Source: Schmidtea polychroa (taxonomy: Eukaryota). From it: DNA of 64,000 bases. The position numbers and the translations under genes are program-made. The notes beneath the pieces are model-generated. The model ran no database searches. It had not been told where the DNA came from and saw only the letters and a list, made by a program, of their open reading frames with translations. This document shows positions 40,466-60,276 of the stretch, in pieces (the first letter of the stretch is position 1; each line of letters opens with the position of its first letter). The stretch covers positions 107,880,001-107,944,000 of the forward strand of contig CM097885.1 of NCBI GenBank assembly GCA_044892525.1, given 5' to 3'.

Positions 40466-42850
40466 TACATTAAATACATTCATTTTTAAAATTATTACTT
40501 TAACTTACTTAAGTTAAATTTTTACTTTACTTTTTTTTAAATTATTACATATTTACTTTAATTTCCCAAGCGACAATGTTTCTTCAAAATAAAGTTACAT
40601 TAATATACCTTTTAAAATTGCATAAACCTAATTTAAAGAACATTACCTTAATTTACTTTTTTAATTAATGTAAACTTTATTTCTCAGTTAATAGCACTTC
40701 TTAAAAATCTACTGCTTATTTAAAATATTACTTTAATTTTAAATACTTTATCGCTTCTAAAAATAACTTACCATAAATTACTGTACAAAATACTCCCTTA
40801 CTATAGTGCTTCACATTGACATAAAAAACATGTCGGACACGGCAGCAAAGGCTATTTTAACTGTATTTTATAAATTTATTTTTATTGTGAAAAAATTAGC
40901 TAGAGTTTTTTAATTAATGAAAAAATGTTTCATTAAAAAATTAGGCTTATTGTTTAAATAAAATATTTATTCATGAAAAAAAATTTATTTTAAGTTTTTC
41001 AAAAATTAAAAAAATTTTTTTTCATTTAAATATAAATTTTAATGTTTTTATTCAAGAAAAAATATTTAGAGTTTTTTCATTGAAAATTTATTTTTATGCT
41101 TTTCAAGGAGAAGTGGGACTTCAAAAAATATCTTCAAGCCAAATATCCCACGAGTCATAGTCTTACTAATACTTACTAATACTCTACTAACGTGATGCCA
41201 TTACGTACTAGACAGCTTGAAAAAAAATATTGATTTTCCATTGTTATATTTTAATTAATTTTTCACTTCAATTTATTTTTTGAATTATGTTGTATTTGTT
41301 TTGTTGGGCTAGAACTGATTTCTAGACCCAAACTTCTAATTATGACTGAAATGTGTAGGTACACAACATGCAAAAAGCAAAAAGTATAGCTAAATATTAA
41401 AAACTACACCAAATAAACAATATTAATTAAAGGAGAAAATAACAAAAAAATAAACACAGAAATTAAATAAAATTATACAAAAGCAAGAAGTTATGCAAAA
41501 TAGAACTCAAAAATAACCAAATAAACACAGAGTTACAAAAAACAGACTCGAATAACTTAAAAACGGTAAAAACAGTATAAAATTCCAGAAAAACCCAGAA
41601 CATTCCATAAAAATGGCGATGACCATCACAAAAGCCATCTAGAACAACAAAAGTTAGAGAAAATAAATAAATTAGTATTAAAAATAAAAAATCTTAAAAA
41701 GAAATTCATAAAACATCAGTTAAAATAAAAATAAAATTAAAATTAACATGGAATGTTCTGGAACCGTTCCAAATCCATCATGGACGTCAAATTAACGAAA
41801 AATAATTAAAAAATAAAAACAAAAATTATGGCACAAAAATTGCCATTAAAAATAGCAAAATCGCAAAATAGAAAATTCTGAAATAAAAAGAATTCGAGTT
41901 TGTTTTACTGAATCAATACATACACGTGTACAAAATAGGTATATATACCGACACGTTTCGGTCATAATTTAATCACTTTTATGCCAATTTTTGAGCGAAA
42001 TCTTGTCAACACAAATAGTGAGTATTGATGATTTATTTTTCATTTTTATTGTATCGATGATTTATTGAGGTTAAAATTAAAGTGATTTTATAATTTTTCT
42101 GTTGAAATTATTTTTAAGTGATGTACGAATGTTCAACGGCGTACCGGTATTCCTGCGTCGTTGTTCGGTCCTGCATCCAATTTATTAAAATTTATAGGAC
42201 ATGCAGACATGCATTATTAATATTATAATGATCGCATATTATATGAATCTTTTTGTTCGGGTCCTTCGGAGGTCGAACTACTTCATGGTCCGGCCATGGA
42301 GTTGGGTCGAGGAAACCCTCCGTCTGACTCTTCGTATCTATTAAAGGTCAGCCGTAAATGGTTGACTTAATATACAACAGTAAGGTTTGTTGAAGTGGTC
42401 ACAGTGGGGCTGCGGAGGCAATAACTCTTCCCGACTTTTATTTAATACACATGTAAAATCAACATTCAAAATCATGAACAACGTCTCTACACTAAGGTCC
42501 TAATTTGAGTAGAACTCATACCTAAATTTACACAATTCTGCAATCACATCAATGTAGCTGGTTGATCAATAATAGTAATTTCAAGTATACTTAGACAGAT
42601 GCCGAACTAGATTTTGTAATAGGAGTTTATTGTAAAGTAATGGAAATGAGAAAGATAGTCGGCATATGCATAAGTATGACTTAATCTAGATAGGCTAATT
42701 CAAAGTAAATGTAGGTATTCTAAATCCAATTCCCACTTTAAAATATGCACAAATGTATGAATACTTAGTTACCATTTTACAATTATTTGTAAGATCTTAG
42801 AGATAATGATATTGAGGTAGATCATTAATGGAAAATCCCGATTAGAAGTT

Positions 42851-43103
42851 ATAGATTTCATGTATAGGAATTTTTATAACTAATTATACAACTTCAGGAA
42901 TATAGTTTATGAATAGCTACCAATAAACTTGAAAATAGATTTTATGTATAGGAATTTTTATAACTAATTATACAACTTCAGGAATATAGTTTATGAATAG
43001 CTACCAATAAACTTGAAAATAGATTTTATGTATAGGAATTTTTATAACTAATTATACAACTTCAGGAATATAGTTTATGAATAGCTACCAATAAACTTGA
43101 AAA
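42851..43103. repeat. Three tandem copies of an 84-bp unit
   Basis: ATAGATTT(C/T)ATGTATAGGAATTTTTATAAC... starts at 42851, 42935 and 43019. Confidence 0.9.
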
Positions 43104-45052
43104 CATTTTGGAAAACTATGATGATCTCACCAAAGTAAACCATCAAAAGTCATGTAAGCTGACTAGAAGTCCAGAAATTGTAAAGTATATAATTATAAAA
43201 TTATAAAATTATATAAAAAAATTATATAAATTATATAAAATAATATAAAGTTATATAAAATTATATAATTATAAATCCTAAAGTATAAAAACCTAAAATC
43301 GTGAATTATTGTAAACTTCAAAATATATAATTATAAATTAGAAGACCTAAATCCCTAAATGGTAAAACATAAAATTATACTACCATTATTATTATTATTA
43401 ACACTATTATTATTATTATTGTCACTAAGGTTATCATCATTATTACTATTATTATTAGTATTGCTGTTANNNNNNNNNNNNNNNNNNNNNNNNNNNNNNN
43501 NNNNNNNNNNNNNNNNNNNNNNNNNNNNNNNNNNNNNNNNNNNNNNNNNNNNNNNNNNNNNNNNNNNNNNNNNNNNNNNNNNNNNNNNNNNNNNNNNNNN
43601 NNNNNNNNNNNNNNNNNNNNNNNNNNNNNNNNNNNNNNNNNNNAATTATTAATCTTATTTCATAAAAATAAAATTATAAAACAAATTATTGATTTTGGGA
43701 TTCCCCTATCTCTAAATTTAGTTTTAATGGCCCTATCTTCCAATAAAATTACAGAAAATCAAAAAAAAATCTATTTTTAGTAACACCGCCCCTGCAAACG
43801 ACATCAATATTATTAATTTAAATTATATCCATATATGTATGCAGGTGTGGGTGTATATGTATATATATGTGAATGTGTGTATGTATATCCAGATTTATAA
43901 AACAACCTTACAATAATACGATAACCTCCAAGACCCATGTTATATAATGGCCACAACCCCTTTAAGGTAATAGCATGAAGAAAAATAATTTACTAAAGCA
44001 ATTTATTAAAATAATTTATTAAAATTATTAGATTTATTTTCAACTCAAATCAAAAAGAGACTAAATTTATTAATTTCAATCACTAAATTTCTGACAAAAT
44101 TAGGTTCAAATCAAATCAAAAGACGAGACTCAATTGTAAACTAAGTTTATTAATTTCAATCACCAAATTTATTTACATCATGGTTTCTTTGAATCATATT
44201 CATGCCAAAGTCCTTCGAGTACAGTTGATGGACCAGCCCAATGAAATACATCTCCTGGGGTTGGAAAGCTTTTGGGTGATTCCTTACTTTCCCCTTCAGG
44301 TCTTTTCTTTTCTTGGTTCAATGACTTGCATATTGCTTTGATGTAATAATGTTAGATGGTCAACTATATTCCTTGCATCTCTTTTGAGTGGTCATTGTCA
44401 GGTAATTCCGCCAGGAAAATTAGTTGGTGGAACTGACCTTGGGGCAACCAAGTCTTCATACCTCATCGAATTGTTATAAACCCGACTACTAAGGAAATCT
44501 CTGAATTTTCTCGTTGATGTTGTCGGCGATCTTTGCTCATCAGGGGTGTCATGATACGTTGTTGGTCAAAGGTGATTGTTTCGGGAGTTCGGCCGACTAC
44601 TGATATTACTGAAATATTATTAAAAAGTTTATGATATAAATATTTAATATTTTAATTTATTTACATTATTATATCGAAATTAACTAAAAATTATATACTT
44701 ATTCGAAATTTACTATTTACCATTAATTGTAATTACAATAATAAAACAACGAAAATTTAAATAATGTTAAATGACTTTGACAAAACCAAAAGTGATAATG
44801 AAATCAAAATTCCATTACTCTATTTAAATTATTAGTTACCAACTTTTTCTATTGGATAAAATTCCTTCTAATTTAATTAATTAAAAATCATATCGGTAAA
44901 TTAAATCGAAAAATTCATGTTAAAAGTATTCATATTAATTTTAGTAAAATTAGTAGTTAAAGTATTATTTATTTTTCTTGGTATATTTTATCATAACGTC
45001 AATTTGTAAGCCACATTGGCGATGCGCGGGTCTTAATATTTATAATACAGGC

Positions 45053-45417
45053 ATGTCCCAATCAGACGATTACAGTGATGAAGAAACCCACCGGCAAATG
45101 ATGACCCGGATCCGTACGCGGTATATTTGGTACCGCATCCACGACTGGAATCGTGGATTGGACCTTGACAACTTTGGCCCGTTATCAGAAGTGGCCCGGA
45201 ACCGGATGCCCCGGCATGGGTGAAGACGGAGCCGGAGAACAACACACTCCGAGAGGCCCGGGATCAAGCAGCCAGTGATGTGGAAGCCGCTCAGATCCGG
45301 CTGAAGCAAATAGAATTGCAAATTTGAGCCAAGAGAGAGGGAGTATCCCTGGAAGAACTCGAGGAGGCCGAGACAACTCCACGAAAGAGAGGAAGGCCCC
45401 GCAAGCATGCCGTGTGA
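45053..45417 (+). pseudogene. Cargo ORF-A1 (paralogue of 50551-51033): coiled coil plus C-terminal AT-hook, disrupted
   Basis: The N-half WYRIHDW matches WYKIHDW. After a frameshift near 45170 it reads KTEPENNTLREARDQAASDVEAAQIRLKQIE (matches KVEPYLNHAS...DAIDRLHRLE), then a premature TGA at 45325, then TPRKRGRPRK. Confidence 0.7.
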
Positions 45418-45684
45418 TTATGGGATGACAATTTACTTGACTATTTTATTTGTATATGAACTAAATAATAGAAGTTGTCGGTGTTTAATTCATTTTCATT
45501 TGTACATTAGTTAAATATGAGTAGTCGTCGGGTGTTTATTCTCGAGTAAAATATCTTCCTTTTGTTCTGTAAATCACTTGATAGATGGAGGAGTTGTAGA
45601 GATGCCCTAGTAGAAAGCGTTACTATTAATTCATTAATTTTACTACTTATTTGTTTAAATTTTCCTTGAGCGTAATCGGTACTA

Positions 45685-46170
45685 ATGAAATTCCTTTTAG
45701 TGTACAAATTAATGGAGAATCTACGTAAAGATCGGGAGCAGGCCCAACAACAAGCCGACGAACTCCGAGTCCGAGGGAATAAGTTGAAAAGGAAATGTCG
45801 GGAGCTCGGGGGGACCTGGTTTAGTCCCGAGGCAATGAAAAAGAAAACAGCTCAGATTCTCCAACTGCAGACACAAGCAAATCAAGACCAAATGGAGATC
45901 CGCGCCCTGAAATTGCAGGTGCGGGCACTCGAAACCGAGCGTAATGAACAATTTATCCAGGAAGCCGTGGCACGACAAATACGGCCGCTGACCGTTGAAC
46001 TCGCAACAATATATCCTCCAGCCGCGGAAGGTAAACCCAAACGAAAGCGGCTTGGACGGAACATTCGGGAGAAGTTAAAAAAGGCCAGATTGGCCGAGTT
46101 CGAACGGCAAGCAAATTCATCGCAAGCGTCTACGACGGGGTTGGCCAGCTCTACCAACAAGCCGATTTGA
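45685..46170 (+). CDS. Cargo ORF-B1: coiled-coil protein with a basic C-terminal patch, unknown function
   Basis: GC-rich ORF homologous over its whole length to 51450-51914 (DREQAQ, CR..xTWF, QLQ, QDQ.E.RAL, IRPL). Homology starts right after a shared TTTAG/TG acceptor, so the true 5' end may be spliced. Confidence 0.75.
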   Translation: MKFLLVYKLMENLRKDREQAQQQADELRVRGNKLKRKCRELGGTWFSPEAMKKKTAQILQLQTQANQDQMEIRALKLQVRALETERNEQFIQEAVARQIRPLTVELATIYPPAAEGKPKRKRLGRNIREKLKKARLAEFERQANSSQASTTGLASSTNKPI

Positions 46171-49100
46171 ACCTGTATTCTGTTTTATATATTTCTGTAG
46201 TATGCCTTGTATATTTGTGTAGCATTAAAATAATAAATATTCTTGTGGTGTTAAAATAGTAATTTTTAGTATCAAATAATGTCTGATATATTTTATGATT
46301 GTGTTGGGCTAGAACTGATTTCTAGACCCAAACTTCTAATTGTGACTGGAATGCGTAGGTACACAGCATGCAAAAAGCAAAAAGTATAGTTAAATATTAA
46401 AAACTACACCAAATAACCAATGTAATTAAAGGAAAAAAACAACAAAAACCTAAAACACAGAAATTAAATAAAATTATACAAAAACAAGAAGTTATGCAAA
46501 ATCTAACTCAAAATAGCCAAATAAACACAGAGTTACAAAAAACAAACTCGAATAACTTAAAAGATGGTAAAAGTAGCAAAAAATTCCAGAAAAACCCAGA
46601 ACATTCCATAAAAATGGCGATGACCATCATAAAAGCTACCTTAAACAATAAAATTTAGAAAAATAAATAAATTAGTATTAAAAATAAAATTTCTTAAAAA
46701 GAAATTCGTAAAATATCAGTTAAAAATAAAAATTGAATTAAAAGTAATATGGAATGTTCTGGAACCGTTCCAAATCCATCATGGAGGAAAAATTAGCAAA
46801 AAATATTTAGGAAATAAAATTTTAAAAATAAAAATAAAAATTATGACGCAAAAATCGCCATTAAAAATATCAAAATTACAAAATAGAAACTTCTGGAATA
46901 AAAAGAATTCGAGTTTGTTTTAATGCATCAATACATACACGTGTACAAAATAGGTATATATACCGACGCATTTTGGTCACAATTTAATCTTTTTATGCCA
47001 AAATTTTTCTTGAAAAATTCGGAACCCACTAATAGTAAGGACGATTGATTAATTTTATCATGATTGTTATTTAATTTATAATTGTTATTTTATTATTTGT
47101 GATTTCATTTCATTATATTGATTAACTTTTTGTTTTTTTTGTTTAATCTTACTATTACGAAATAAGAGTGAACAGCATTGTGAACGGGTTATAGTCACTA
47201 TACTGGTCAGCCTTGTTTCCAATTTAAAGACTACATGCACCATTTTTGGGTCTACGACCCCACATGCATGAAATATAAACCCCTTTTATTAACCGGAGGT
47301 CGCCACGAACTAATGGTTCTAACCAGGAGTAGGGCGGTAAACCCATACCGGTAGTTGGCATAGTCATAGGGACTATGCGGACGAAATAAACTTCGGGAAA
47401 GTAATCGCGGGAAACATACTACAATAAGGCCTATCGTACCGTATCCAGTTGGGTCGGGAAAGTAGGAAAATTTTAATTAATTTGACTTTTCAGTAAACAA
47501 CATACCAAAAATCAACACTTAATTCTGATATAGGAAACAGACCACTAGGATCATCTAAACGGGAAATATCCCAGACTCAAATTAATATAGGGACTTTCGG
47601 TAGTCGGCTAATTGCTTAAACTCATATCTGATATTAACTAAATTTAGTATTGTTATTCATAATTTTGTTTAATGTATTTTGGTTCACGATCAATAAATAT
47701 TTTATAAATCCCTCAACAATTTTTATTGCCTTTATGCATATCGAAATGTAAATGATATAAAATCTTCAAAGAAAATTTTGAGTCCTAATAATACTATCCA
47801 TTTGGGTGCCCTTACTACTATCATGCTTGGTTTTCTAACATTACCTTAGTTAAGGGTATATCCTTGCCATATAATGGCATATATAAGTATATTAAACTTT
47901 CTTAATACATATTTACCTTATGTTTAGAAAAGGATAAATTATAGATTTTCTCAAATGACCCCGGCATATATATATACCACCCAAATGTCCTAAAGGAACC
48001 TATTTTAATGTATAGTTTTAGATAGTGATATGTTCAAATGATAATTTAGCAATTCCCATCCTTAGGATCCTTATTATTATTAATTATTATTATTAATTTC
48101 CAAAAATGTATTATCTTATGGAAGTATATAGGAGTATACAGTTCCCTTAAAGTATATTTAACTTATATTAGGTTCAGAGAAAGCTAAATCACAACTTTCT
48201 TAAATGACCCCCCCCCCCCGAAATATACCTTCATTAACCGTTGTGCCCTATTATTATTATTATTATCATCTCCATCATTCTTACTAATATTATTGTTACA
48301 ACGAGCATTATTATTAATATATTTCGTGTTAGTATTATTACTATTAATTTAATATTGCTATTACAATGAGTATTATTATTATTACTATTAATTTAATATT
48401 GTTATTACAATGGGTATTATTGTAAAAATATNNNNNNNNNNNNNNNNNNNNNNNNNNNNNNNNNNNNNNNNNNNNNNNNNNNNNNNNNNNNNNNNNNNNN
48501 NNNNNNNNNNNNNNNNNNNNNNNNNNNNNNNNNNNNNNNNNNNNNNNNNNNNNNNNNNNNNNNNNNNNNNNNTTATGGTTATTCTTATTAANNNNNNNNN
48601 NNNNNNNNNNNNNNNNNNNNNNNNNNNNNNNNNNNNNNNNNNNNNNNNNNNNNNNNNNNNNNNNNNNNNNNNNNNNNNNNNNNNNNNNNNNNNNNNNNNN
48701 NNNNNNNNNNNNNNNNNNNNNNNNNNNNNNNTTATCCTTATCATTAGTATTCTTATAATAATTATCATTATTATTACTGTTAGGATTATTATTGTAGTTA
48801 CTATCACTGTTGTCATTATTATTATTATTAGGATGATCATTATTAATGTTCTTGATATTACTGTTTTAGTGCTATTACCATTAACACTTCCACTCTTATC
48901 ATTGCCACTATTATTATCACTACCCTTGTCATTGCGTTGTTAATTAATTATTACAAATTTTTTTAATTAGCAATTTGGGATCCCCCTATGGCTGAAATTA
49001 ATCGCAAGAACCCTACCTTGTTACTATATAACCTACTTCAACAAATATACTGATTTCCCTAATGTTACTAAAAATAGAACCGATATTATCGATTTCCTGT

Positions 49101-49599
49101 TCCTTATATAAAATGCAGCCAATAAAACTGATCCTATTTATGGAAACAACCCTGCAAATTAAGGGAACCCTCGCCGAGTCTACCCTAACCATCTAAATAG
49201 ACGAGACATACATACTCATAGACGAGCCAATCAACATCAGCTAAGACAGCAGGAACTCTAACCTTCATGTAAAACCCATGACACCCCAGCAGATTTAACC
49301 CTGGTACCCCAGAAGTAGATCCCATACATACCAGAAAGGACAAGGGATATTTTCCCCAAGAGCGACTGCTTAAGCTGGAATGTATACCCGGTACAACTAT
49401 AAACTAAGAATAATGAGGAGCATATATTATAGTTATAACTGCTAATTACTTAAAATGAAAAACAGAAAAAACTAACAACATTGTTTAATAACTATTCCTT
49501 TACGCAAAATAAATTATTTACTTAAATACAACAAAAGCGAAATATCATTTAATGAAATCAAACATTTATTTAATAAATCATTTTAGCCATTATAAAGTC

Positions 49600-49999
49600 T
49601 CACTGATGATGTGGAAGGGTGAATGGAAGGAGAGCCACTCTTAATTCCTTCAAGTGCAAAATTTTTTTTTTCTTAAATTCCCACGGCCTAGCTCCAAATT
49701 TGAAATGAAAAATTTCCATCTGAACTCCTCATAAATTGAGCATGTCGGCATATATTGGGCCACTGCCAAATAATATTATATCGCATACATTATCCGAGGG
49801 AAACGTCATGCCCAAAACGGAGGTTTTGGGAAATCCAGATCTGAAATAAACGAACTTAACAAGATCTAAATTTGATTTACCCATTAATTAGCAGTAGATG
49901 ATTTAGCCACCTACAACCACTATGGTCAAGGATTGTGAGGAGCCGAAATAAATTCGGACAGTTAACAATGCCGTTTTCCATAGTGGGTCTTAGTAGCAT
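49600..49999 (-). pseudogene. Possible spliced minus-strand cargo gene (40-nt intron 49841-49880, one internal TGA)
   Basis: Removing GTAAAT...TTTCAG joins MLLRPTMENG...LLING to SGFPKTSVLG...; the frame stays open past a single TGA at 49729-49731 to 49600. No recognisable family. Confidence 0.35.
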
Positions 50000-50550
50000 A
50001 ATTTTGATTGAAAAGGAAATTTTTTTTTTAAAAAAGGAAATTATTATGGAATAATAAATTAACCTTTTAATTGAGATAAACAAACTCATTCGAATAGGTA
50101 ATTCTAATTTAATTTACGAAATTCAAATTTTTCAGTTAATTGATTCATATCAAATATTTATTTTAATTCAACTTATGCAATTTTATTCAAATATCAAATA
50201 TTTATTTTAATTTAATTTATGCAATTTCTTTCAAATATTTACTTTAATGCGAAATTGTCTACCTTAATTTTGCCCTACCCCCCTTAAGTTGATAACCTAA
50301 GTCACCAATCTGAAATGTAGGAACTTGATTTAATTTAGCAATCTGGAACCAATTTATTGAATTGGGTATATGGACCAAATATAGAAATAAATTTATAAAC
50401 TAATTTACGTTGCCTAGAAATCATGGTCTGTTGAATTGGTTGTGTGTCATGCGTGTACATAAATTGTAACGAGGTATTTGGATGTTTTGGAGTGATCAAA
50501 CGTAACAGAAGTGTAAGGATTTGTTCTAATATTTTGGTTATATTACAGTC

Positions 50551-51033
50551 ATGCCCAACACCAGGTCAAGGAATATGCAGGCCGGCCCCTCATCAGTCGA
50601 TTCGAGCCTAGAAATTACCGGCGAGGAAGCAGACGAAGCCGTCCGATTGAGAGAGGACGCAGAAATCGCCCGGCTACGGTCCAGGTGGGTCTGGTACAAG
50701 ATCCATGATTGGACTTACCAGAACGTGATCCCCGTAATTCCGAAGGTGGAGCCTTACCTCAACCACGCGTCGTTAGCCTTGATCGACGCTTTTGACGAAG
50801 TGACGGATGCGATAGACCGATTACACCGGCTCGAGAAAGCGACTCTGGCTGGCGAGGTAGAAGACTGCGACGGCTACGCTCGAGCCCAATGTCACCCGAA
50901 ACGGACCGCGGCTCTTCAGCGTGGATTAAAATACCCAAGACGGCCTCAACGAGGACCAGGACGACCAAGGACACGCGGACACACGCGAACGTCCACCCGC
51001 TCGACCAAGGAGAGCGCGGGATTTGGAGAGTAG
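50551..51033 (+). CDS. Cargo ORF-A2: 160 aa, acidic N-terminus, coiled coil, basic tail with a GRPR (AT-hook-like) motif
   Basis: Intact GC-rich ORF. Its ATG follows a TACAG acceptor plus 2 nt, exactly as in ORF-A1. Confidence 0.75.
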   Translation: MPNTRSRNMQAGPSSVDSSLEITGEEADEAVRLREDAEIARLRSRWVWYKIHDWTYQNVIPVIPKVEPYLNHASLALIDAFDEVTDAIDRLHRLEKATLAGEVEDCDGYARAQCHPKRTAALQRGLKYPRRPQRGPGRPRTRGHTRTSTRSTKESAGFGE

Positions 51034-51449
51034 GCGGAAAACTCGGGATCAAAACTAATCATTTTGTGCTGACCTCAGTGTCGGGTGTATTAGGTGATAT
51101 TATGTACTGGATTAAACCTCTTTAATCCAGGATTGAATAAAATATGTTAGGCCTTAACAGTTCATCATAATTATTTAATGTTTGTTTGTGTCTTGATGGT
51201 CGGTGACAACTTAATGGGGTGGATTGTTTGAATTTTTGCAATGTCCATGACGTGGAATATCGTCATTGTTGACTACACATTTCTATAGCGACAACAACCC
51301 TATAGGTTGAGTAAGATAAATAGGTCTCGGTCTTGGGGCGCGCGTAGCGAAGGACTACGACGAGGGGATTACTTTCTTTTAGCCTTAATGCCCATAATAA
51401 TGTTCGACCCTCGATGTCGATGTAAAATCATTGATCTTACCTTTGTTTA

Positions 51450-51914
51450 GTGCAGAAACTCTTGGAAGAGATGCGAGCTGATAGGGAACAGGCACAACGA
51501 CAGGTAGACGAATACCGGACCAAGTTGACCCGAGTCAAGACCCACTGTCGGAACTTCGAGTGCACCTGGTTCCCACCAGCGGAGATGAAGAAGAGGATGA
51601 AGTTGATCACCCAACTGCAACTTCAGAATGCTCAAGACCAGATTGAGTTGCGGGCCCTCCGCTTAAGGGTGAGGGAACTGGAAGCCAAGGTGCATCAACA
51701 GGAGCTGGAGCGAGAGGTCATTGCCAAGATCCGGCCTTTAGATGAGTTGCTCCATCGACCAAAAGAACCTGCCCCCACAATAGTAACCCCAAGGAAGAAG
51801 ATTCGGCCGGGAAAAGCGGCACGAGCGAGGATGAGGCAGGCCAGCCAGGCCCAATTAGCTCTCCATGCTACTGAATCAGAGGCTACGCCAAGAGAACCGA
51901 CCAGCACACGATAA
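51450..51914 (+). CDS. Cargo ORF-B2: coiled-coil protein with a basic C-terminal patch, unknown function
   Basis: Paralogue of 45685-46170 with amino acids conserved despite many synonymous differences; begins at a TTTAG/TG acceptor. Confidence 0.75.
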   Translation: MQKLLEEMRADREQAQRQVDEYRTKLTRVKTHCRNFECTWFPPAEMKKRMKLITQLQLQNAQDQIELRALRLRVRELEAKVHQQELEREVIAKIRPLDELLHRPKEPAPTIVTPRKKIRPGKAARARMRQASQAQLALHATESEATPREPTSTR

Positions 51915-52027
51915 GCGATTCATGTTGTCAAAATAAATCTTCACAGTGCGTCCATAGCGGGCATTTTGATTTCCTTTTATTATAATGTTAATTGTTGTAA
52001 CGGGGACGAAAAGAAATCGGAAATAGG

Positions 52028-52235
52028 CCTTCTAACGGCAGTCCGTGAACCCCAGTGGGTGCTAGACAATTATAGTATGTTAAGCATGCTCACTTTTTGC
52101 TAGTGCCCAAACCCTTGATACAGTACCAACGTTGATTGCTCAACGGGTATCAAGTGGTCAGCTATAAATTGTATCCTGGGTTACGCTGGAAACAGCATGA
52201 GGAGGTAAAAAGATTTACAGTACCTGTAACCCACC
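52028..52235 (+). ncRNA. Candidate multi-helix structured RNA, copy 1
   Basis: Helices GGGTGCTAG/CTAGTGCCC, CTTGATAC/GTATCAAG, CGTTGA/TCAACG, GGGTTAC/GTAACCC and GCTG-GAAA-CAGC; compensatory changes relative to the other copies. Confidence 0.6.
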
Positions 52236-52313
52236 AATTGCCTGAGAAATGAGAGTTTGTGCGTAAGGTTGGGGAAACAATTTAGATAAGGGACCTGAGA
52301 AATCGGACACACA

Positions 52314-52515
52314 CCTTCTAACGGTAGTCCGTGAACCCATAGAGTACTCGACAATTATAGTGCCTTGATGCGCTCACTTTTTGCGAGTACTCAAACCTTG
52401 GTACAGTACCAACGTTGATTTCTCAACGGGTGCCAAGCGGAACAACAATGTTGTATCCTGGGTTACGCTGATAACAGCATAAAATCGTAATTAATCGACC
52501 ACCAGTAACCCACCA
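52314..52515 (+). ncRNA. Candidate multi-helix structured RNA, copy 2
   Basis: Same architecture with GAGTACTCG/CGAGTACTC, CTTGGTAC/GTGCCAAG and GCTG-ATAA-CAGC. Confidence 0.6.
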
Positions 52516-52599
52516 GTTTTCTATGTGTTGTACACAATTTTTTGTTCACTTTATTTTTATTAGTACTTCCTTGCCTAATAAAATATAATTGAAGAATTA

Positions 52600-54600
52600 A
52601 AATTAAAACTAAATAAAATATGATAGACTAAGTTACGTAAATTTTTGAAATATTGGTTTTAGTTAATTATTTAGGATTTTTCTGATATACAAAGGTTATT
52701 TATGTGATTAATGGCTTTTTGGTATTCTTTATCCAAAGGTTTTATTGGGTAGATTTCAACGAAAATCTAAAAATGAAGATAATTGATTTCATTGCATATA
52801 TTTCACATTAATGATGCTATCATGATAATAAGATCCACTTTGTTAGTATAAGTCATACTTTTATTTAAAATTTTCCAAGTATTTTTTAACATAGAAAAAT
52901 AATTTTGAACTCTAACTTAGCCTCCCCTTCCCTCCGGCCATTTAGGATTTTTCAAAAATTCGGCTGTCCTTTTAACAAAGAACTTTTATAGATTTTTCGT
53001 TTTAAAGGAATTTTTTTTATTTTATGATCATAATAGGGTCGTGTGTACTCTACATTATGGTTCTATTCGATGGTTCAACCAAGGTAGGTGAGTCAAAACT
53101 TTCAAATGGTAAAAAATTTTGATTTTCTTAAACATGATTTAAAGATCGACACCATCATGGAGAACATGTTGGATCATAACTTACAAGGTTTCAAAAACGT
53201 TGACATTTATTAAATTAATTAAAAGTAAATAAAATATAAAAATCATAAAATAAAATAAATGATAAATTATAAAAATTCGCCTTCATATGTGATAAAAGTT
53301 AAAATTCACAATTAAAAATAAGTGTCCAATTAAATTAAAATAATTCAAATTTTCTTTACTGAATCAGTGCACGCACACATATTCACACACCAAAATGAAA
53401 CAATATATAATCCAACGCATTTCAGTTATAATTTAATGCTGAAATTTTGGGTAAACCAAATTTTTCAATTAGCACTCGTGAAAATCGAAATTATGTATGG
53501 AAGTAAGGAATTTTTCTTTGTATGTCATGTTATGATTCAATTATATAACGAAATTATAGATTCTGGTTTTTGTTTTCACTTTTTATTAAAATGAAATCAC
53601 TTTCAATGGTTAAAATCAAACACCTTTTTCGCCCCACAGTTACTAGATGAAACTGCAAGTCAGTAAAATGAAAGCATATCTTGACCTACGATGAGGGAGG
53701 CATTTCTACTGTACTGTTAATCGGTAACTTCTTGTAATGGGTAACCCTAACCCTAACGCCCCGGTGTCTACAACTGGAAAGATCGTGCGTGTCCGTACCA
53801 TGCTCACTAAAGGGAAAATGAGTAACCACGTAACGTCAACCGCCAAGGTCAATTTATATAGGAGATCGGGAATTAAGTCGAGCTTTATAGTTCGGTAGTG
53901 ATTCTGTTGAGGTTATAAAATAATTAAAAGTAAAATTAAATTATATTTGTAATTGAATGAATGAGAGAAGTATAAAACTGGTCAGGGAGTGAATTGAAAA
54001 CGCGAAGAAATAAAATAGGTAGAAAGGCCCGAGAAGGTACATTAAAGGGCACGTGGAGTCAGAGGTCACTGATTTGAATTAATAAATCCCAACTTTTCTA
54101 AAGGTCTTAATACATAACACTAAGTGCTCGTCACACTATTGTCCAGTGGGCCGTGTGGGACAGGCAACTTTTTTTTATTGTTATAATAATCGACTCATAG
54201 AGCACTTAGGCAACAAACCTAAATTCAGCATTTAAACTACAGTATTTTTATCTGTTAAAAGACACTAAGAGCACATTCTCCTAATATCTTGTGAGCTATG
54301 GGTAAGTAGTATCTAAACTATTATTGAATTAAACTTCTGACAAATTGCAATGAGAAATGAGCGAGAAAAATAAAATCCATCAATAATGTTAGTCAATCGA
54401 ATAGTACAAATTAAAATCATTTGTGTCAAATCATTGTGCGAAAAAAGGGCAGATCCCTGCTCAAAATTCTTGAGAGATAGTTTTAAATAACGATTATATC
54501 GGAAAAGAGTAAATAAAAATAAGGGCGGTCCATGCTCAAATTTTAATTAACGTTGAAACTTAGAACTAAACTTGCAAAAGGGCGAAATAAAGGCGGATTC
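52600..54600 (+). repeat. Strongly diverged further copy of the unit scaffold (unit E)
   Basis: CCATCATGGAG at about 53153; TTTACTGAATCAGTGCACGCA at about 53355 (head-segment tail); CGTACC...GGGAAA at about 53795; AGATCCCTGCTCAAAATT at about 54450 (matches the reverse complement of about 32520-32540). Boundaries approximate. Confidence 0.45.
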
Positions 54601-54618
54601 CCTTAAGTTGGACACAGG

Positions 54619-54805
54619 TCTTCTAACAGTAGTCCCACGCTTGGATTCTCGGCGACTAAAGTGTACCGGAGTAAGCTCACTTTTTGCGAGTATTCACCCA
54701 TTCGATACAATTCCTAATGGCTATCGAGAGGTAAAGCAATGTTGAATTCAGGATTACGCTGGAAACAGCACTGAGAGGTATAGTTTGATTACTTGTAACT
54801 TACCT
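54619..54805 (+). ncRNA. Candidate multi-helix structured RNA, copy 3 (more diverged)
   Basis: CTTCTAAC...GCTCACTTTTTGCGAGTA...TCGATA/TATCGA...GGATTAC-GCTG-GAAA-CAGC...AGGTA/TACTT-GTAAC. Confidence 0.5.
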
Positions 54806-55503
54806 AGTTTACCTAGAACTCTTCTATTTTCACTTGAAAATTTTGGAGTAGACTTAGAGTATCGAAAAGGACAAGGATATGATGAAGCTCCAGTTAACAC
54901 CGTGAAAATAGAAGGAGTACAGGCTTACGCCAGAAAGATACCTTACAGTTGCTTTAATTTCAAAATTATAATTTTTTTCCTGAATCAAAATTTTAAAATT
55001 ATTCCCGGGAAATTTTTTTCTTAATTTCCGGTTTATTGGGAACAGAAAGAACCCTGCAAAAGATACCCTCTAATTTTATTGTCTTTAATACAGAAACCAA
55101 ATTTCTTGATCTCGTTATTATCAATAGAAAAAGTATTTGATTATACATTGCCAATATGTAAATATTTGCAGTCCGAAAATGTAGATTTTAGTATGGCCAT
55201 TCAACATGTAAAACATGTTGAATCGGTGCTTAGTAATATTCGTATAAATTCAGAATAGGAATTTAACATCATTTATGAAAAGGCCAAAAGTATAATTATT
55301 AAGATCTTTAATAATACATCTGTTGAGGTTCCTAATATCTCAACTTGATGGTTCTTATTTAAATAAAAACAAGTCATTTATTTTTAATAATATATTTAAA
55401 TAATGATCAAATGATTTTAATGATTTTAACTAAATTATTTCACTGTTAATGTTGAAAAATTATTTCAAATTAAAATTCTACTAGTTATGTTTTTGTTGCC
55501 ACA

Positions 55504-56786: not shown

Positions 56787-57446
56787 TTCAAGGTCAAATT
56801 TAAACAAAGACATATGACTCATCAAGGTCATTGAAACAAAGACCATGAGTCATCCTATGACTCATAAAATTTTTCAAGGTCATTTAAACAAAGACCATGA
56901 CTCATCCGATGACTCATCAAGGGCATTTTCAAGGTCATATGACTCATAGTATGACTCAGATGACCTTGAAAATTTTTTTCAAGGTGATATGACTCATCCT
57001 ATAACTCATCAAGGTCATTTTCAAGGTCATATGACTCATAGTATGACTCATCTGACCTTGAAAAATTTTTTTTCAAGGTCATATGACTCATCCTATGACT
57101 CATCAAGGTCATTGAAACAAAGACCATGACTCATAGTGTGACTCACCAAGGTCATTTTCAAGGTCATATGACTCATCAAGGTCATTTTCAAGGTCATATG
57201 ACTCATAGTATGACTCATTTGACCTTGGAAATTTTTTTTTCAAGGTCATATGACTCATCCTATGACTCGTCAAGGTCATTCTCAAGGTCATATGACTCAT
57301 CCGATGACTCATCAAAATTTTCAAGGTCATTTTCAAGGTCATCTGAGTCATCCTATGACTCATCAAGGTCATTTTCAAGGTCACATGACTCATCCAAGGT
57401 CATTCCCAAGGTCATATGAGTCATCGCGATGACTCATCAAGGTCAT
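56787..57446. repeat. Polinton subterminal tandem/inverted repeat array built from TGA(C/G)TCA and (T/C)CAAGGTCA
   Basis: About 25 copies of each motif by manual count, some inverted to form hairpins (TGACCTTGAAAAA..TTTTCAAGGTCA). Confidence 0.9.
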
Positions 57447-57601: not shown

Positions 57602-57670
<69 letters not shown>

Positions 57671-57795
57671 GTATTAATCTATATACACCGAGTCTATATA
57701 CTCTGAGTCTATCCGACAAAATATTTTGTCCCCCTATGGGTAATGCTCACAAGGGTACTGGTCACGCTCAACAAATCAACAAAACATACATTTAT

Positions 57796-58296
57796 TTAAA
57801 CAATAAAATAATGTAAAATTAACAAAGGTAAACTAAATATTGATGCACTTCTATTCGCAGCATTATTGTTAGAAATTGGTAACGTTGAATTGATTTTCAG
57901 ATATTCTATTGATCCTTTGATTGTTTGAATTTCTCTTAATAATAATTCAATCTTTTTTAACAAATAATCATGCTTCTTATCAATAATCTTCATATTCTTT
58001 TTATTTTCAGTAATAGAGTTATTGAAAACCTCAATATGATCAATCAATTTAATTTTTATATTTTGTATATATTCAAATGTTAGTTCATAACTGTTTTCTA
58101 AATTCTCCAATCTTTGAGATATTCTTTTTCCTGGATGCTTTGACCATTTTGGTTTATCGAGAATATATAAAATATCCATCAACTTGGCTGTATTCGGACA
58201 AACACATATTGATTTATTAAAAGACTCCACCGTTATTGTTGTATTGTGTGAGCACACACTCGTTATAATAATTAGCAATATGAATAGAGTTTTCAT
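57796..58296 (-). CDS. Polinton accessory protein: signal peptide, coiled coil, C-terminal hydrophobic (GPI-signal-like) tail, 166 aa
   Basis: MKTLFILLIIITSVCS signal peptide; five N-x-S/T sequons; heptad-rich middle; NNNAANRSASIFSLPLLILHYFIV end; TATAAAT upstream. Confidence 0.7.
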   Translation of the reverse strand: MKTLFILLIIITSVCSHNTTITVESFNKSICVCPNTAKLMDILYILDKPKWSKHPGKRISQRLENLENSYELTFEYIQNIKIKLIDHIEVFNNSITENKKNMKIIDKKHDYLLKKIELLLREIQTIKGSIEYLKINSTLPISNNNAANRSASIFSLPLLILHYFIV

Positions 58297-58321
58297 GGTG
58301 TATCAAATCAAAACCTTTCTT

Positions 58322-58375
58322 TTACATTTATAGTCTATCAACCAATCAAAATCATCCGGTATTAGTATAAATAAA
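58322..58375. promoter_or_regulatory. Divergent promoter with two TATA-like boxes around a CCAAT box
   Basis: TATAAAT on the minus strand at about 58326-58332, AACCAATCA at about 58340 and TATAAATA at about 58367, between the ATGs at 58296 and 58402. Confidence 0.5.
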
Positions 58376-58401
58376 ACATCATATTTTAAATTATTGTAAA
58401 A

Positions 58402-58922
58402 ATGTCTCAATTTATGGAAAATCTTTTAAGAGAACTCGTCAACAGGAATATTATGGAAAGCCTATGTTTCCTGGTCGATCGGACCGAAAAGATTATAGAA
58501 GGTAATCACATTGATTATGACGATGTGATCAATTCTGATTGTCTCGAAACCAAAAAATTCTATTTTAATAGAATTTTTAACTGTCTATGCGACGATCAGA
58601 TGAAGTGGACCCGAATACTAGTAGGGTTCGCTTATATGAAAATAATAATCCAAAGAAGTCTATGGGACTCAGAGCACTATTATCAGTGGTCTCAAGAAGT
58701 AATACTTTTATAATTTATATTTTATTAATATTTATTTTCTAGATAATCAAGTCAAAGTTTCAACCATGGATTGAAGCCAATGGCGGATGGGGAGTACTCA
58801 ATCAACTCGCCAGAAATGCAAAAGAAATAGACGATCAGAAAAGAAAATTTAAAAACTATGTAAAACTTGCAACAGGTGTTGCTATTTTGTATATTTTAAC
58901 CAGATTTTTAAATAAAAATTAA
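58402..58922 (+). CDS. Bcl-2 family protein, 158 aa, two exons (58402-58698, 58743-58922; 44-nt intron)
   Basis: BH1-like LCDDQMKWTRILVGFAY. Splicing GTAATA...TTCTAG (phase 0) gives WSQEIIKSKFQPWIEANGGW, aligning without gaps to Bcl-xL WMATYLNDHLEPWIQENGGW. C-terminal tail anchor LATGVAILYILTRFLNKN. Confidence 0.88.
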
Positions 58923-59005
58923 TATAGTTATTTTTGTTTGATTTTTAAATAAATTTTTAAATAACATTTTAAATAAATTTACAAACACTAATTAACTAAG
59001 ATTTA

Positions 59006-59383
59006 TTAATTAACACATTCGCAGTCGTCATCTCCACATTTCATTATATTTTCAACGACATGATCAATACAATCATTCGTAATATTATCTTTAGATTCAT
59101 CTTTAGGTTCCTCTATAGGTTCCTCTATAGGTTCATAGATTTCCTCTTGAGTTTCTTCCTCATCAATTTCTTGAGTTTCTTCCTCATCATCAAATCCTGT
59201 ATCTTGACTCTCAACTAACCAGCCGATATTTAAGGCATTTGTAATAGATAATATATCCTCCATTTTCACACCAGATATTTCTGCTAACTTTTCCAACAAA
59301 AAGTTGATTAAAAATTCTAAATAATAAATAATTCGGTAATTAATTAATTAATCATGTTAACCTTTTTCTACAGTCATTTTCAT
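59006..59383 (-). CDS. Small acidic Polinton protein, probably two exons (45-nt intron 59317-59361)
   Basis: The ORF lacks an ATG until GTTAAC...TTTAG is spliced, giving MKMTVEKEFLINFLLEKLAEISG...; Glu/Asp-rich repeats; Cys-containing C-terminus. Confidence 0.55.
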
Positions 59384-59511
59384 CACTTTAAAACTAAATT
59401 ATAAGTTTGTTTATAGATTTTCTTTGTTAAATTTGCATGTCATTTGCATTTATGTTGCAATTAATAAAGAGAAAAAAACAAATCTGACTAATACATTTAT
59501 TAAATATAACA

Positions 59512-59922
59512 TTAAAATATTTGTGAAAGTCTAGCAGACATAATTTTCCAAATAGGAGAATATACATCATTATTATCAACTTTATATCCCTGGATTGCAA
59601 TTGTTATATACCAATTTTCATTTTCTTTGAAAGCGATTTCATCAAAGGAATCATAAAATCTTGCATATTTATTGTTGAACCATGCATGTTGATTACACGA
59701 TAGATTCGAATCTATCCGTTTAAAAACATCATCAATAGTTTTGACATCAATCATTGAAAGCGTGCCGGATAAGAATTCAAATTTAGTTGGAATTAGCTTG
59801 ACTGGTGCAACCAATTTCATATTGATTTCTTCTTTCAAAAAATACATTTTGTAGTTGTGGAACATTTGAACTGGTTGTACCATTTCTTTAGGTTTTTCGG
59901 TGCTTGAAATTTTCTTGGTCAT
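59512..59922 (-). CDS. Polinton hypothetical protein, 136 aa (beta-rich C-terminus)
   Basis: ATG-initiated ORF with TATAAAAA about 40 nt upstream and CCAAT at about 59983; no confident family. Confidence 0.65.
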   Translation of the reverse strand: MTKKISSTEKPKEMVQPVQMFHNYKMYFLKEEINMKLVAPVKLIPTKFEFLSGTLSMIDVKTIDDVFKRIDSNLSCNQHAWFNNKYARFYDSFDEIAFKENENWYITIAIQGYKVDNNDVYSPIWKIMSARLSQIF

Positions 59923-60276
59923 CGTGAATAATGAATAAATTTAAATGTTACAGGGTTTTTATACCTTTGACTCATGCCTATCAACCAATCAGATTATAGC
60001 ATGTCTTTGTTTAAATTGCATTCAAAATGCATTGATGTTGCATTGTCACATGTTCTATTTACAGATTTATTATTAATGTTTAAATTATTACATGTTTTGA
60101 TATATGTACAGATTTATTATTAATATGTTTCATTATTATTAATGTTTTTACTATTATTACTATTCATATTTCTATTACTATTATTATTACTATTATTATT
60201 ATTACTATTATTATTTCAAATATAAAACACAATAAAACACAATAAAAAAGATAAAACACAATAAAAAATACATTTA

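Follow-up and report, generated by a model that had tools for sequence, protein, structure and literature searches.

A conserved RNA structure at the LTR ends of a giant Burro-type retroelement in Schmidtea polychroa, likely located in U5

Structured U5/primer-binding site (PBS) domains have been characterized in detail for HIV-1, avian retroviruses, and Ty1, whereas those of animal gypsy elements have received very little attention. In avian retroviruses, a stem at the LTR end lies beside the PBS and a further helix joins U5 to the leader. The avian U5-IR is named in one source (PMC3601003), and a contact between U5 and the primer T loop is described in another (PMC3185550). In HIV-1, a primer activation signal (PAS) that is complementary to the primer T arm is part of a structured PBS segment (PMC11181671, PMC3185550, PMC11251516), and the RNA of Ty1 contacts the T and D arms of its primer beyond the core PBS (PMC4974528). 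Two primer sites are reported for Drosophila Gypsy (PMC1635307), and the MLV nucleocapsid protein remodels tRNA-Pro as well as its PBS segment (PMC7793103). In planarians, the Burro retroelement has an architecture of Gag, MATH, fusion-protein homology, protease, RT, RNase H, integrase, ankyrin, and BIR (PMC6431247); Burro accounts for a large share of planarian genomes and is targeted by PIWI (PMC8532177). The Burro passages of two reports (PMC8532177, PMC11410931) make no mention of an RNA structure in the LTR, and no description of one was found in the literature searched, which covered few subscription papers.

The DNA analyzed here, referred to as the window, is a 64-kb stretch of the S. 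polychroa genome. A sequence-only reading of this window had proposed that a structured RNA is triplicated between positions 52028 and 54805. The stems quoted in support of the proposal, GGGTGCTAG/CTAGTGCCC, GAGTACTCG/CGAGTACTC, CTTGATAC/GTATCAAG, and CTTGGTAC/GTGCCAAG, are all exact in the sequence. Three homologous copies are indeed present, at about 52000-52236 (copy 1), 52285-52515 (copy 2), and 54603-54805 (copy 3), with a mean column identity of 78% in the three-copy alignment, and a profile built from them did not find a fourth copy in the 64-kb window. The extent needed correction, since the domain begins ∼25 nt 5′ of 52028 and includes an extra hairpin with compensatory changes. Each copy makes up the final ∼240 nt of an LTR, and the three are the ends of three separate insertions. 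There is no triplication unit, and a tandem triplication was rejected on these grounds.

The arrangement of the three LTRs is given in Table 1. Solo LTR B (46302-52236) is nested inside solo LTR A (41302-52515), and copies 1 and 2 adjoin because LTR B inserted into LTR A 279 nt before the end of the latter. Both LTRs, like most of the loci found in the genome, start with TGTTGGG and end with CCCACCA (TG...CA with a short inverted repeat). Target duplications of 4 bp flank both window LTRs and 15 of 19 genome loci, and none was demonstrated for copy 3. We also considered a SINE or a 3′ tRNA-like end with template jumping and rejected it, because both 5′ ends and the duplications identify nested solo LTRs. 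The DNA of LTR A and LTR B can be aligned only over the first 700 and the last 190 nt. A search of the organism's own genome (781 Mb) returned 3740 first-look candidates, 40 of which were scored; all of these except the window's own match only 280 nt around copy 2. A second, young LTR family ends in copy 1, and the common end point recurs in 23 of 24 other family-B loci. When longer flanks were compared, fixed 5′ ends were also seen for both LTR families. Copy 3 is the end of a decayed remnant of an older LTR family (53212-54805), and its upstream block and the domain co-occur at four other loci. A full-length form of this older family was not seen, as no PBS was found behind six of its ends.

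Table 1. Features of the window, with positions counted from its first nucleotide.
Feature	Position	Strand	Remarks
Solo LTR A, 5′ part	41302..46301	+	Starts TGTTGGG; target duplication GTTT at 41298-41301
Solo LTR B, 5.9 kb, young, inside LTR A	46302..52236	+	TG...CA; ATTG at 46298-46301 and 52237-52240
LTR-borne ORF 1 (stop to stop)	50530..51033	+	No Pfam match at E 0.1
LTR-borne ORF 2 (stop to stop)	51435..51914	+	No Pfam match at E 0.1
AATAAA, predicted poly(A) signal	51932..51937	+	305 nt upstream of LTR end
GGGAC motif	52003..52007	+	Complements tRNA-Pro variable loop/T-stem start; pairing predicted
Hairpin P1, 7-nt UUCUAWC loop	52018..52045	+	Compensatory changes in inner stem
TGAACCC motif	52046..52052	+	Complements tRNA-Pro T-stem/T-loop; pairing predicted
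Hairpin P2, conserved internal loop	52057..52108	+	7/17 pairs compensatory
Hairpin P3, contains palindrome CAACGTTG	52114..52154	+	4/13 evaluable pairs compensatory
TTGTAT	52169..52174	+	Predicted partner: pre-PBS spacer across LTR end, 5′ LTRs only
Stem P4 and variable segment P6	52177..52233	+	Predicted; P4 without compensatory change
Hairpin P5, GNAA, within P4	52185-52196	+	Predicted; without compensatory change
CCCACCA, 3′ end of LTR B	52230..52236	+	Integrase attachment end, inferred
LTR A 3′ end, including copy 2	52237..52515	+	GTTT duplicated at 52516-52519
P0 long-range helix, 5′ strand in LTR A	52269-52283	+	Partner strand exists only in full-length elements
Older LTR remnant, decayed, 5′-truncated	53212..54805	+	∼200 nt deleted directly before copy 3 (54603-54805)

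Exact junctions consisting of the LTR end, a spacer, and the PBS occur 393 times in the own genome, and the reversed control gave 0. In these 5′ LTRs, the PBS is 18 nt long and begins 8 nt behind the LTR end. Compared to the 3′ end of the genome's tRNA-Pro(TGG), the 18-nt PBS is an exact complement at 77 of 91 ends and has one mismatch at the remaining 14. Two family-B LTRs were found 30.8 kb apart with the duplication TCTA common to their outer ends, and the element spans about 36 kb. Three pieces of the internal region behind one such LTR end matched Pfam models above the cut-offs for Gag, MATH, fusion glycoprotein, RT, RNase H, integrase zinc finger, ankyrin, BIR, and RING, and they also encode zinc knuckles, protease, integrase, and a TRAF zinc finger. 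Judged by the architecture of the one element examined, the host is a Burro-type giant gypsy LTR retroelement. The polyprotein of the examined element is split over several frames. A polypurine tract before the 3′ LTR was searched for with one guessed pattern, which gave 0 matches, and in one 301-nt stretch, which missed the LTR start.

Within the LTR, AATAAA clusters 280-339 nt upstream of the LTR end (76 hits in this bin among the 176 copies with enough upstream sequence) and falls shortly after an LTR-borne ORF. Many family-A copies, in which AATAAA is missing, have ATTAAA or neither signal. The termini and the AATAAA of these elements fit the general LTR pattern (PMC3601003), and LTR-borne ORFs have precedents in HIV nef and MMTV sag (PMC12789967). 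Based on its position after the poly(A) signal, the folded domain is likely the U5 part of the LTR, between the poly(A) site and the PBS, and would occur in the genomic RNA solely within the 5′ leader. The predicted poly(A) signal, the probable U5, the tRNA-Pro PBS, and the 8-nt spacer are the first landmarks inside the 5-6 kb Burro LTR.

The fold was evaluated with an alignment of 137 distinct full-length copies, obtained from 195 profile hits (177 full-length). The set includes 60 loci from the first 100 of the 393 junctions, all on one contig, and 50 loci found via a pattern requiring the GAAA hairpin, 20 of which were hand-picked for diversity; as a consequence of this pattern, the conservation of P4 and P5 is inflated. 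Fifty evaluable pairs were drawn from complementarity, and a pair was scored as compensatory if both sides had changed in at least three copies. The analysis revealed 13 compensatory pairs among the 50, against 5.0 ± 2.1 under a tree-based null, with 0 of 500 simulations reaching 13. Cells of the proposed pairs are canonical in 97% of cases across the 137 copies vs 78% in tree-based simulations. All 13 compensatory pairs fall in P1, P2, and P3, and no compensatory change was found in the GGGTTAC stem (P4) or the GNRA hairpin (P5) among the 137 copies. The GAAA junction named in the sequence-only reading is the part of the domain that lacks compensatory change. When all column pairs were scanned blind, with 60 tree-based simulations as the null, no single pair was significant, and the two best pairs (E 1.4 and 1.9) are predicted pairs. 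The covariation expected from a larger alignment is present in the aggregate but not at the level of single pairs in the blind scan. Among the 55 copies below 93% identity, both sides have changed at 19 of 51 pairs, and pairing is retained in 94.7% of cells vs 29-39% for slid controls; the shuffle control for this set ignores kinship. RNAalifold returned 18 pairs only from the 55-copy alignment, within parts of P1, P2, and P5.

Shared G-U is seen at 24 pairs vs A-C at 11. In 128 of 131 copies, the P5 loop reads GNAA, and its second base (the N of GNRA) varies. Both observations favor a plus-strand RNA, as had been read from the window. The GAAA loop itself is found in copies 1 and 3, but copy 2 reads ATAA, which is not GNRA. 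The proposed three-way junction is not general, since canonical pairing in the third helix reaches only 70% across copies and its segment is shortened to a small stretch in some subfamilies. The predicted probability of P4 exceeds 0.5 in 62 of 64 folds and, if the leader is included, in 22-25 of 26. The folding z relative to shuffles is −2.8 for copy 1, −5.0 for copy 2, and +0.5 for copy 3, whose closing stem is broken and whose fold is no better than shuffles; copy 3 is decayed. Folding z is by itself not specific to the domain, as other LTR windows reach z down to −2.7 on the plus strand and −4.7 on the minus strand. Unpaired loops in P2 and P3 evolve slowly, and the CCCACCA end is found in 124 of 137 copies. 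The palindrome CAACGTTG is present in 115 of 137 copies and mostly paired in the predicted fold; the subfamily of loci L105 and L130 has lost it and has kept the P3 stem via compensatory change. An alternative helix, AACCC/GGGTT, is 92% canonical and was rejected, with 0 compensatory changes and a probability near 0.

Searches against Rfam 15 gave no match to ribozyme, IRES, xrRNA, tRNA-like, or other families at the gathering level over the 64-kb window and, up to E 10 over 51900-54900, only one unrelated chance hit (E 9.9). For tRNA, ARAGORN reported 0 in one locus, and no T arm was found inside P4. Taken together, the comparisons support a conserved cis-acting plus-strand RNA structure in the LTR ends. 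The suggestion of a new cis-acting RNA holds with respect to the conserved structure but not to free-standing novelty, as the domain is the probable U5 end of a known giant retroelement and is not a new class of free-standing RNA.

Immediately 5′ of the domain, PBS-bearing copies have a stretch that complements the leader 115-135 nt beyond the LTR end; we term the predicted helix P0. The best P0 helix has at least 10 bp in 52 of 77 PBS-bearing copies, reaches up to 21 bp, and is nearly always in one register. It beats all 25 shuffles in 40 of the 77 copies, and compensatory and wobble variants are found between subfamilies. When matched and crossed subfamily pairs were compared over 20 clusters, the matched pairs were more stable (P 0.012). 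Taken over the whole of the compared segments, the duplex z has a median of −1.35, and only 11-12 of 26 full folds give P0 a probability above 0.4. The subfamily to which copy 1 belongs has a P0 helix of 8-9 bp that is no better than shuffles. In addition, the conserved TTGTAT upstream of P4 could pair across the LTR end with ATACAA. Of 71 copies parsed (75 examined), 64 have this helix intact, and no compensatory change is seen; it is broken in 7, and a shared variant breaks it in 5. Since both helices need a following leader, a role in the 5′ copy is indicated. An alternative pairing of the P4 strand with the leader was rejected, as it appeared in 0 of 26 folds.

The domain is also complementary to the primer outside of the PBS. 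The only 6-mers that complement tRNA-Pro nt 1-57 and are present in at least 60% of copies tile nt 44-56. GGGACC is found in 89 of 137 copies and TGAACCC in 110, or in 122 if the wobble variant TG(A/G)ACCC is counted, including 61 of 62 PBS-bearing copies. Relative to 5000 shuffled tRNAs, the complementary run has a P of 0.007 with 6-mers and 0.069 with 5-mers, the thresholds being post hoc. The two motifs flank hairpin P1 in an order reversed relative to the tRNA. The P1 loop reads UUCUAWC in 122 of 137 copies and resembles the tRNA T loop except for one position. With the PBS blocked, the predicted net binding to tRNA-Pro has medians of −8.7 and −4.8 kcal/mol (13 of 16 sampled copies), and both motifs also have possible partners within the domain. 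No masking of the T-arm motif in a stem was seen in 64 copies, where its pairing probability with the P4 strand is near 0, and the motif is 40-60% unpaired in the folds.

Our best explanation, to which we assign roughly even chances, is that the domain is a U5/primer-binding domain of the genomic RNA that helps to hold tRNA-Pro and to start reverse transcription. The explanation builds on the observed position in the LTR and the compensatory change in P1-P3. For a 5′ LTR transcript, the prediction is that P0 links the beginning of U5 with the leader 115-135 nt beyond the LTR end and that P4, lengthened by six pairs across that end, leaves the PBS directly next to it. Annealing of the 3′ 18 nt of the primer to the PBS would open the T arm, and the two motifs flanking P1 could then pair with the variable loop and T arm of the primer, comparable to the HIV-1 PAS and the Ty1 boxes. 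The domain would in this manner present the PBS, capture the opened T arm, and license initiation. The copies in the window would be inert in this role because no PBS follows them. Most of the domain (P2, P3, and the conserved loops) is left unexplained by priming.

A more specific form of the explanation, which is tentative and on balance unlikely, combines a tRNA clamp with a P0 closing helix that also shuts down the 5′ LTR poly(A) site. The two reversed motifs around P1 would grip 13 consecutive nt of tRNA-Pro (variable loop and T arm) from ∼200 nt away, inside a leader domain of ∼390 nt closed by P0. If true, no metavirus would be known to have a more elaborate priming domain, and the P0 switch would tell the 5′ LTR from the 3′ LTR. 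Since hundreds of natural Burro variants are available, the fold, the primer contact, and the helix specific to 5′ LTRs are testable by comparison.

From the list of functions given in the sequence-only reading, the packaging signal is the only serious rival left. As a dimerization/packaging signal, the domain would offer the internal loops of P2 and P3 to Gag, and the P3 palindrome would start dimers. The 5′ leader position, with the domain and PBS enclosed by P0, the slow evolution of the unpaired P2/P3 loops, and the wide occurrence of the palindrome suit such a role, for which palindromes proposed to mediate dimers in Ty1 set a precedent (PMC4974528). We nevertheless hold it to be improbable, as one subfamily dispenses with the palindrome and keeps the stem, and the palindrome is mostly paired in the predicted fold. 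Retroviral packaging signals are, moreover, mostly located 3′ of the PBS, unlike the domain.

Somewhat more doubtful is control of expression, in which P0 would hide a GU-rich poly(A) element in the 5′ LTR only or the domain would act as an IRES downstream of the LTR-borne ORFs. The 5′ strand of P0 does fall in GU-rich sequence ∼30-70 nt downstream of AATAAA, and only 5′ LTRs are followed by the partner strand; however, if AATAAA is in U3, suppression is unnecessary, so that the reading hinges on the transcript start site, and P0 is weak in copy 1's subfamily. Two LTR-borne ORFs end just upstream of AATAAA, and the RNA would be polycistronic if its start site preceded them. For an IRES, the first ORF at ∼740 nt and the Gag frame at ∼3.7 kb behind the LTR end (one element) are far, and the probable position in U5, directly before the PBS, makes the suggestion doubtful. 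The priming, packaging/dimerization, and expression-control readings are mutually compatible and need not exclude one another.

Retroelements need the R region for strand transfer, and cleavage or stalled decay inside U5 would remove it. For this reason, and given the position directly before the PBS, a self-cleaving ribozyme or nuclease-resistant RNA, as had been suggested, is very improbable; so is a tRNA-like 3′ end (an 8-bp stem followed by CCA), as the multi-helix fold, conserved loops, and stem with a frequent CCCACCA end are met by the lack of a relevant Rfam match, the lack of a tRNA in the locus given to ARAGORN, and the fact that CA is the ordinary LTR terminus (PMC3601003). Equally implausible is that the helices reflect shared ancestry or DNA-level signals (integrase end, promoter elements) with no RNA role, a reading that can point to few deep lineages, the lack of a single significant pair, comparable z in other LTR windows, and a P4 3′ strand conserved regardless as the LTR end, but that is opposed by aggregate covariation above the tree-aware null, the excess of G-U over A-C, a tetraloop that varies at the N of GNRA, and two LTRs that align as DNA only near their ends.

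Returning to the U5/primer-binding reading, both the element and the type of domain are already known, whereas the fold, the long-range helix, and the split T-arm complement appear to be undescribed. Burro (GYPSM1) of planarians, like the element described here, exceeds 30 kb and has LTRs and this domain set (PMC6431247). The HIV-1 PBS segment is likewise structured around an 18-nt PBS and includes the integrase end and a T-arm complement (PMC11181671, PMC3185550); sequence likeness is not expected. Compared to HIV-1, the Burro domain is about 240 nt with a predicted helix that encloses some 390 nt. In contrast to the HIV-1 PAS, the Burro complement is split into two motifs of reversed order, about 190 and 230 nt upstream, its motif is predicted to be mostly open rather than stem-masked, and an 8-nt spacer precedes the PBS. 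Ty1 and Ty3 have extended pairing to the T/D arms of the primer beyond the core PBS, as is proposed here (PMC4974528). However, their PBS is short and split, with extra segments in GAG or the 3′ UTR, whereas Burro has a full 18-nt PBS and its motifs are in U5. The avian retroviral U5-IR and U5-leader helices are alike in the LTR-end stem by the PBS and in the pairing of U5 with the leader, and relative to these, the Burro domain, with its predicted fold, is much larger and has three more hairpins.

Variation among the LTRs of this Burro-type group is seen in the window and in loci taken from the source genome (L-numbers). In L101, L124, L128 and L194, the folded RNA domain at the LTR end, the likely U5, has one common 3' segment joined to differing 5' halves, which suggests that recombination has occurred within U5 between subfamilies. 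Group LTRs are often nested in or adjoin each other (L040, L065, L072, L073, L090 and L226), as they do in the window. On the minus strand yet another LTR of the group begins, for which no structured 3' end was found within the window.

The nested solo LTR B and its host, solo LTR A, are 88% identical over their first 700 nt, in contrast to their middles, which do not align at the DNA level. Within the 5' 700 nt, two windows gave minus-strand folding z values of -3.5 and -4.7. Each of the two LTR families has a pair of small ORFs that end just upstream of the predicted poly(A) signal and are related between A and B (about 52%, tblastx); a Pfam search with these ORFs gave no matches. Elsewhere in the window are tandem repeats rich in the AP-1-like motif TGACTCAT and a separate repeat in which one short ORF had a weak Bcl-2 match (E 0.003, below the cut-off).

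Additional features of the window
Feature	Position	Strand	Remark
Start of another group LTR	33991	minus	TGTTGGGCTAG; similarity to A and B about 69-78%
LTR A start	41302-41992		
LTR A small ORF pair	44957-46170		
LTR B start	46302-47008		
LTR B small ORF pair	50530-51914		
Tandem repeats	56788-57425		
Separate repeat with short ORFs	57640-59940		90% match in L063

Genes for tRNA-Pro(TGG) occur in tandem with a period of 475 bp at L210 (G000:C1 near 130.9 Mb), and a 20-nt tRNA-Pro(TGG) pattern has 2215 genome-wide matches. In the solo LTRs of L036 and L059, the LTR end is followed by an 11-nt spacer and the tRNA-Pro primer binding site (PBS), the last 34 LTR bases again, and the target duplication; the repeated bases look like the result of a strand-transfer slip. 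Complementarity to the tRNA extends 1-6 nt beyond the 18th base in 44 of the 91 PBS-bearing ends. Across these ends the spacer between LTR and PBS is almost invariant at 8 nt (8604-8611 in L096), which is long by the standards of LTR elements.
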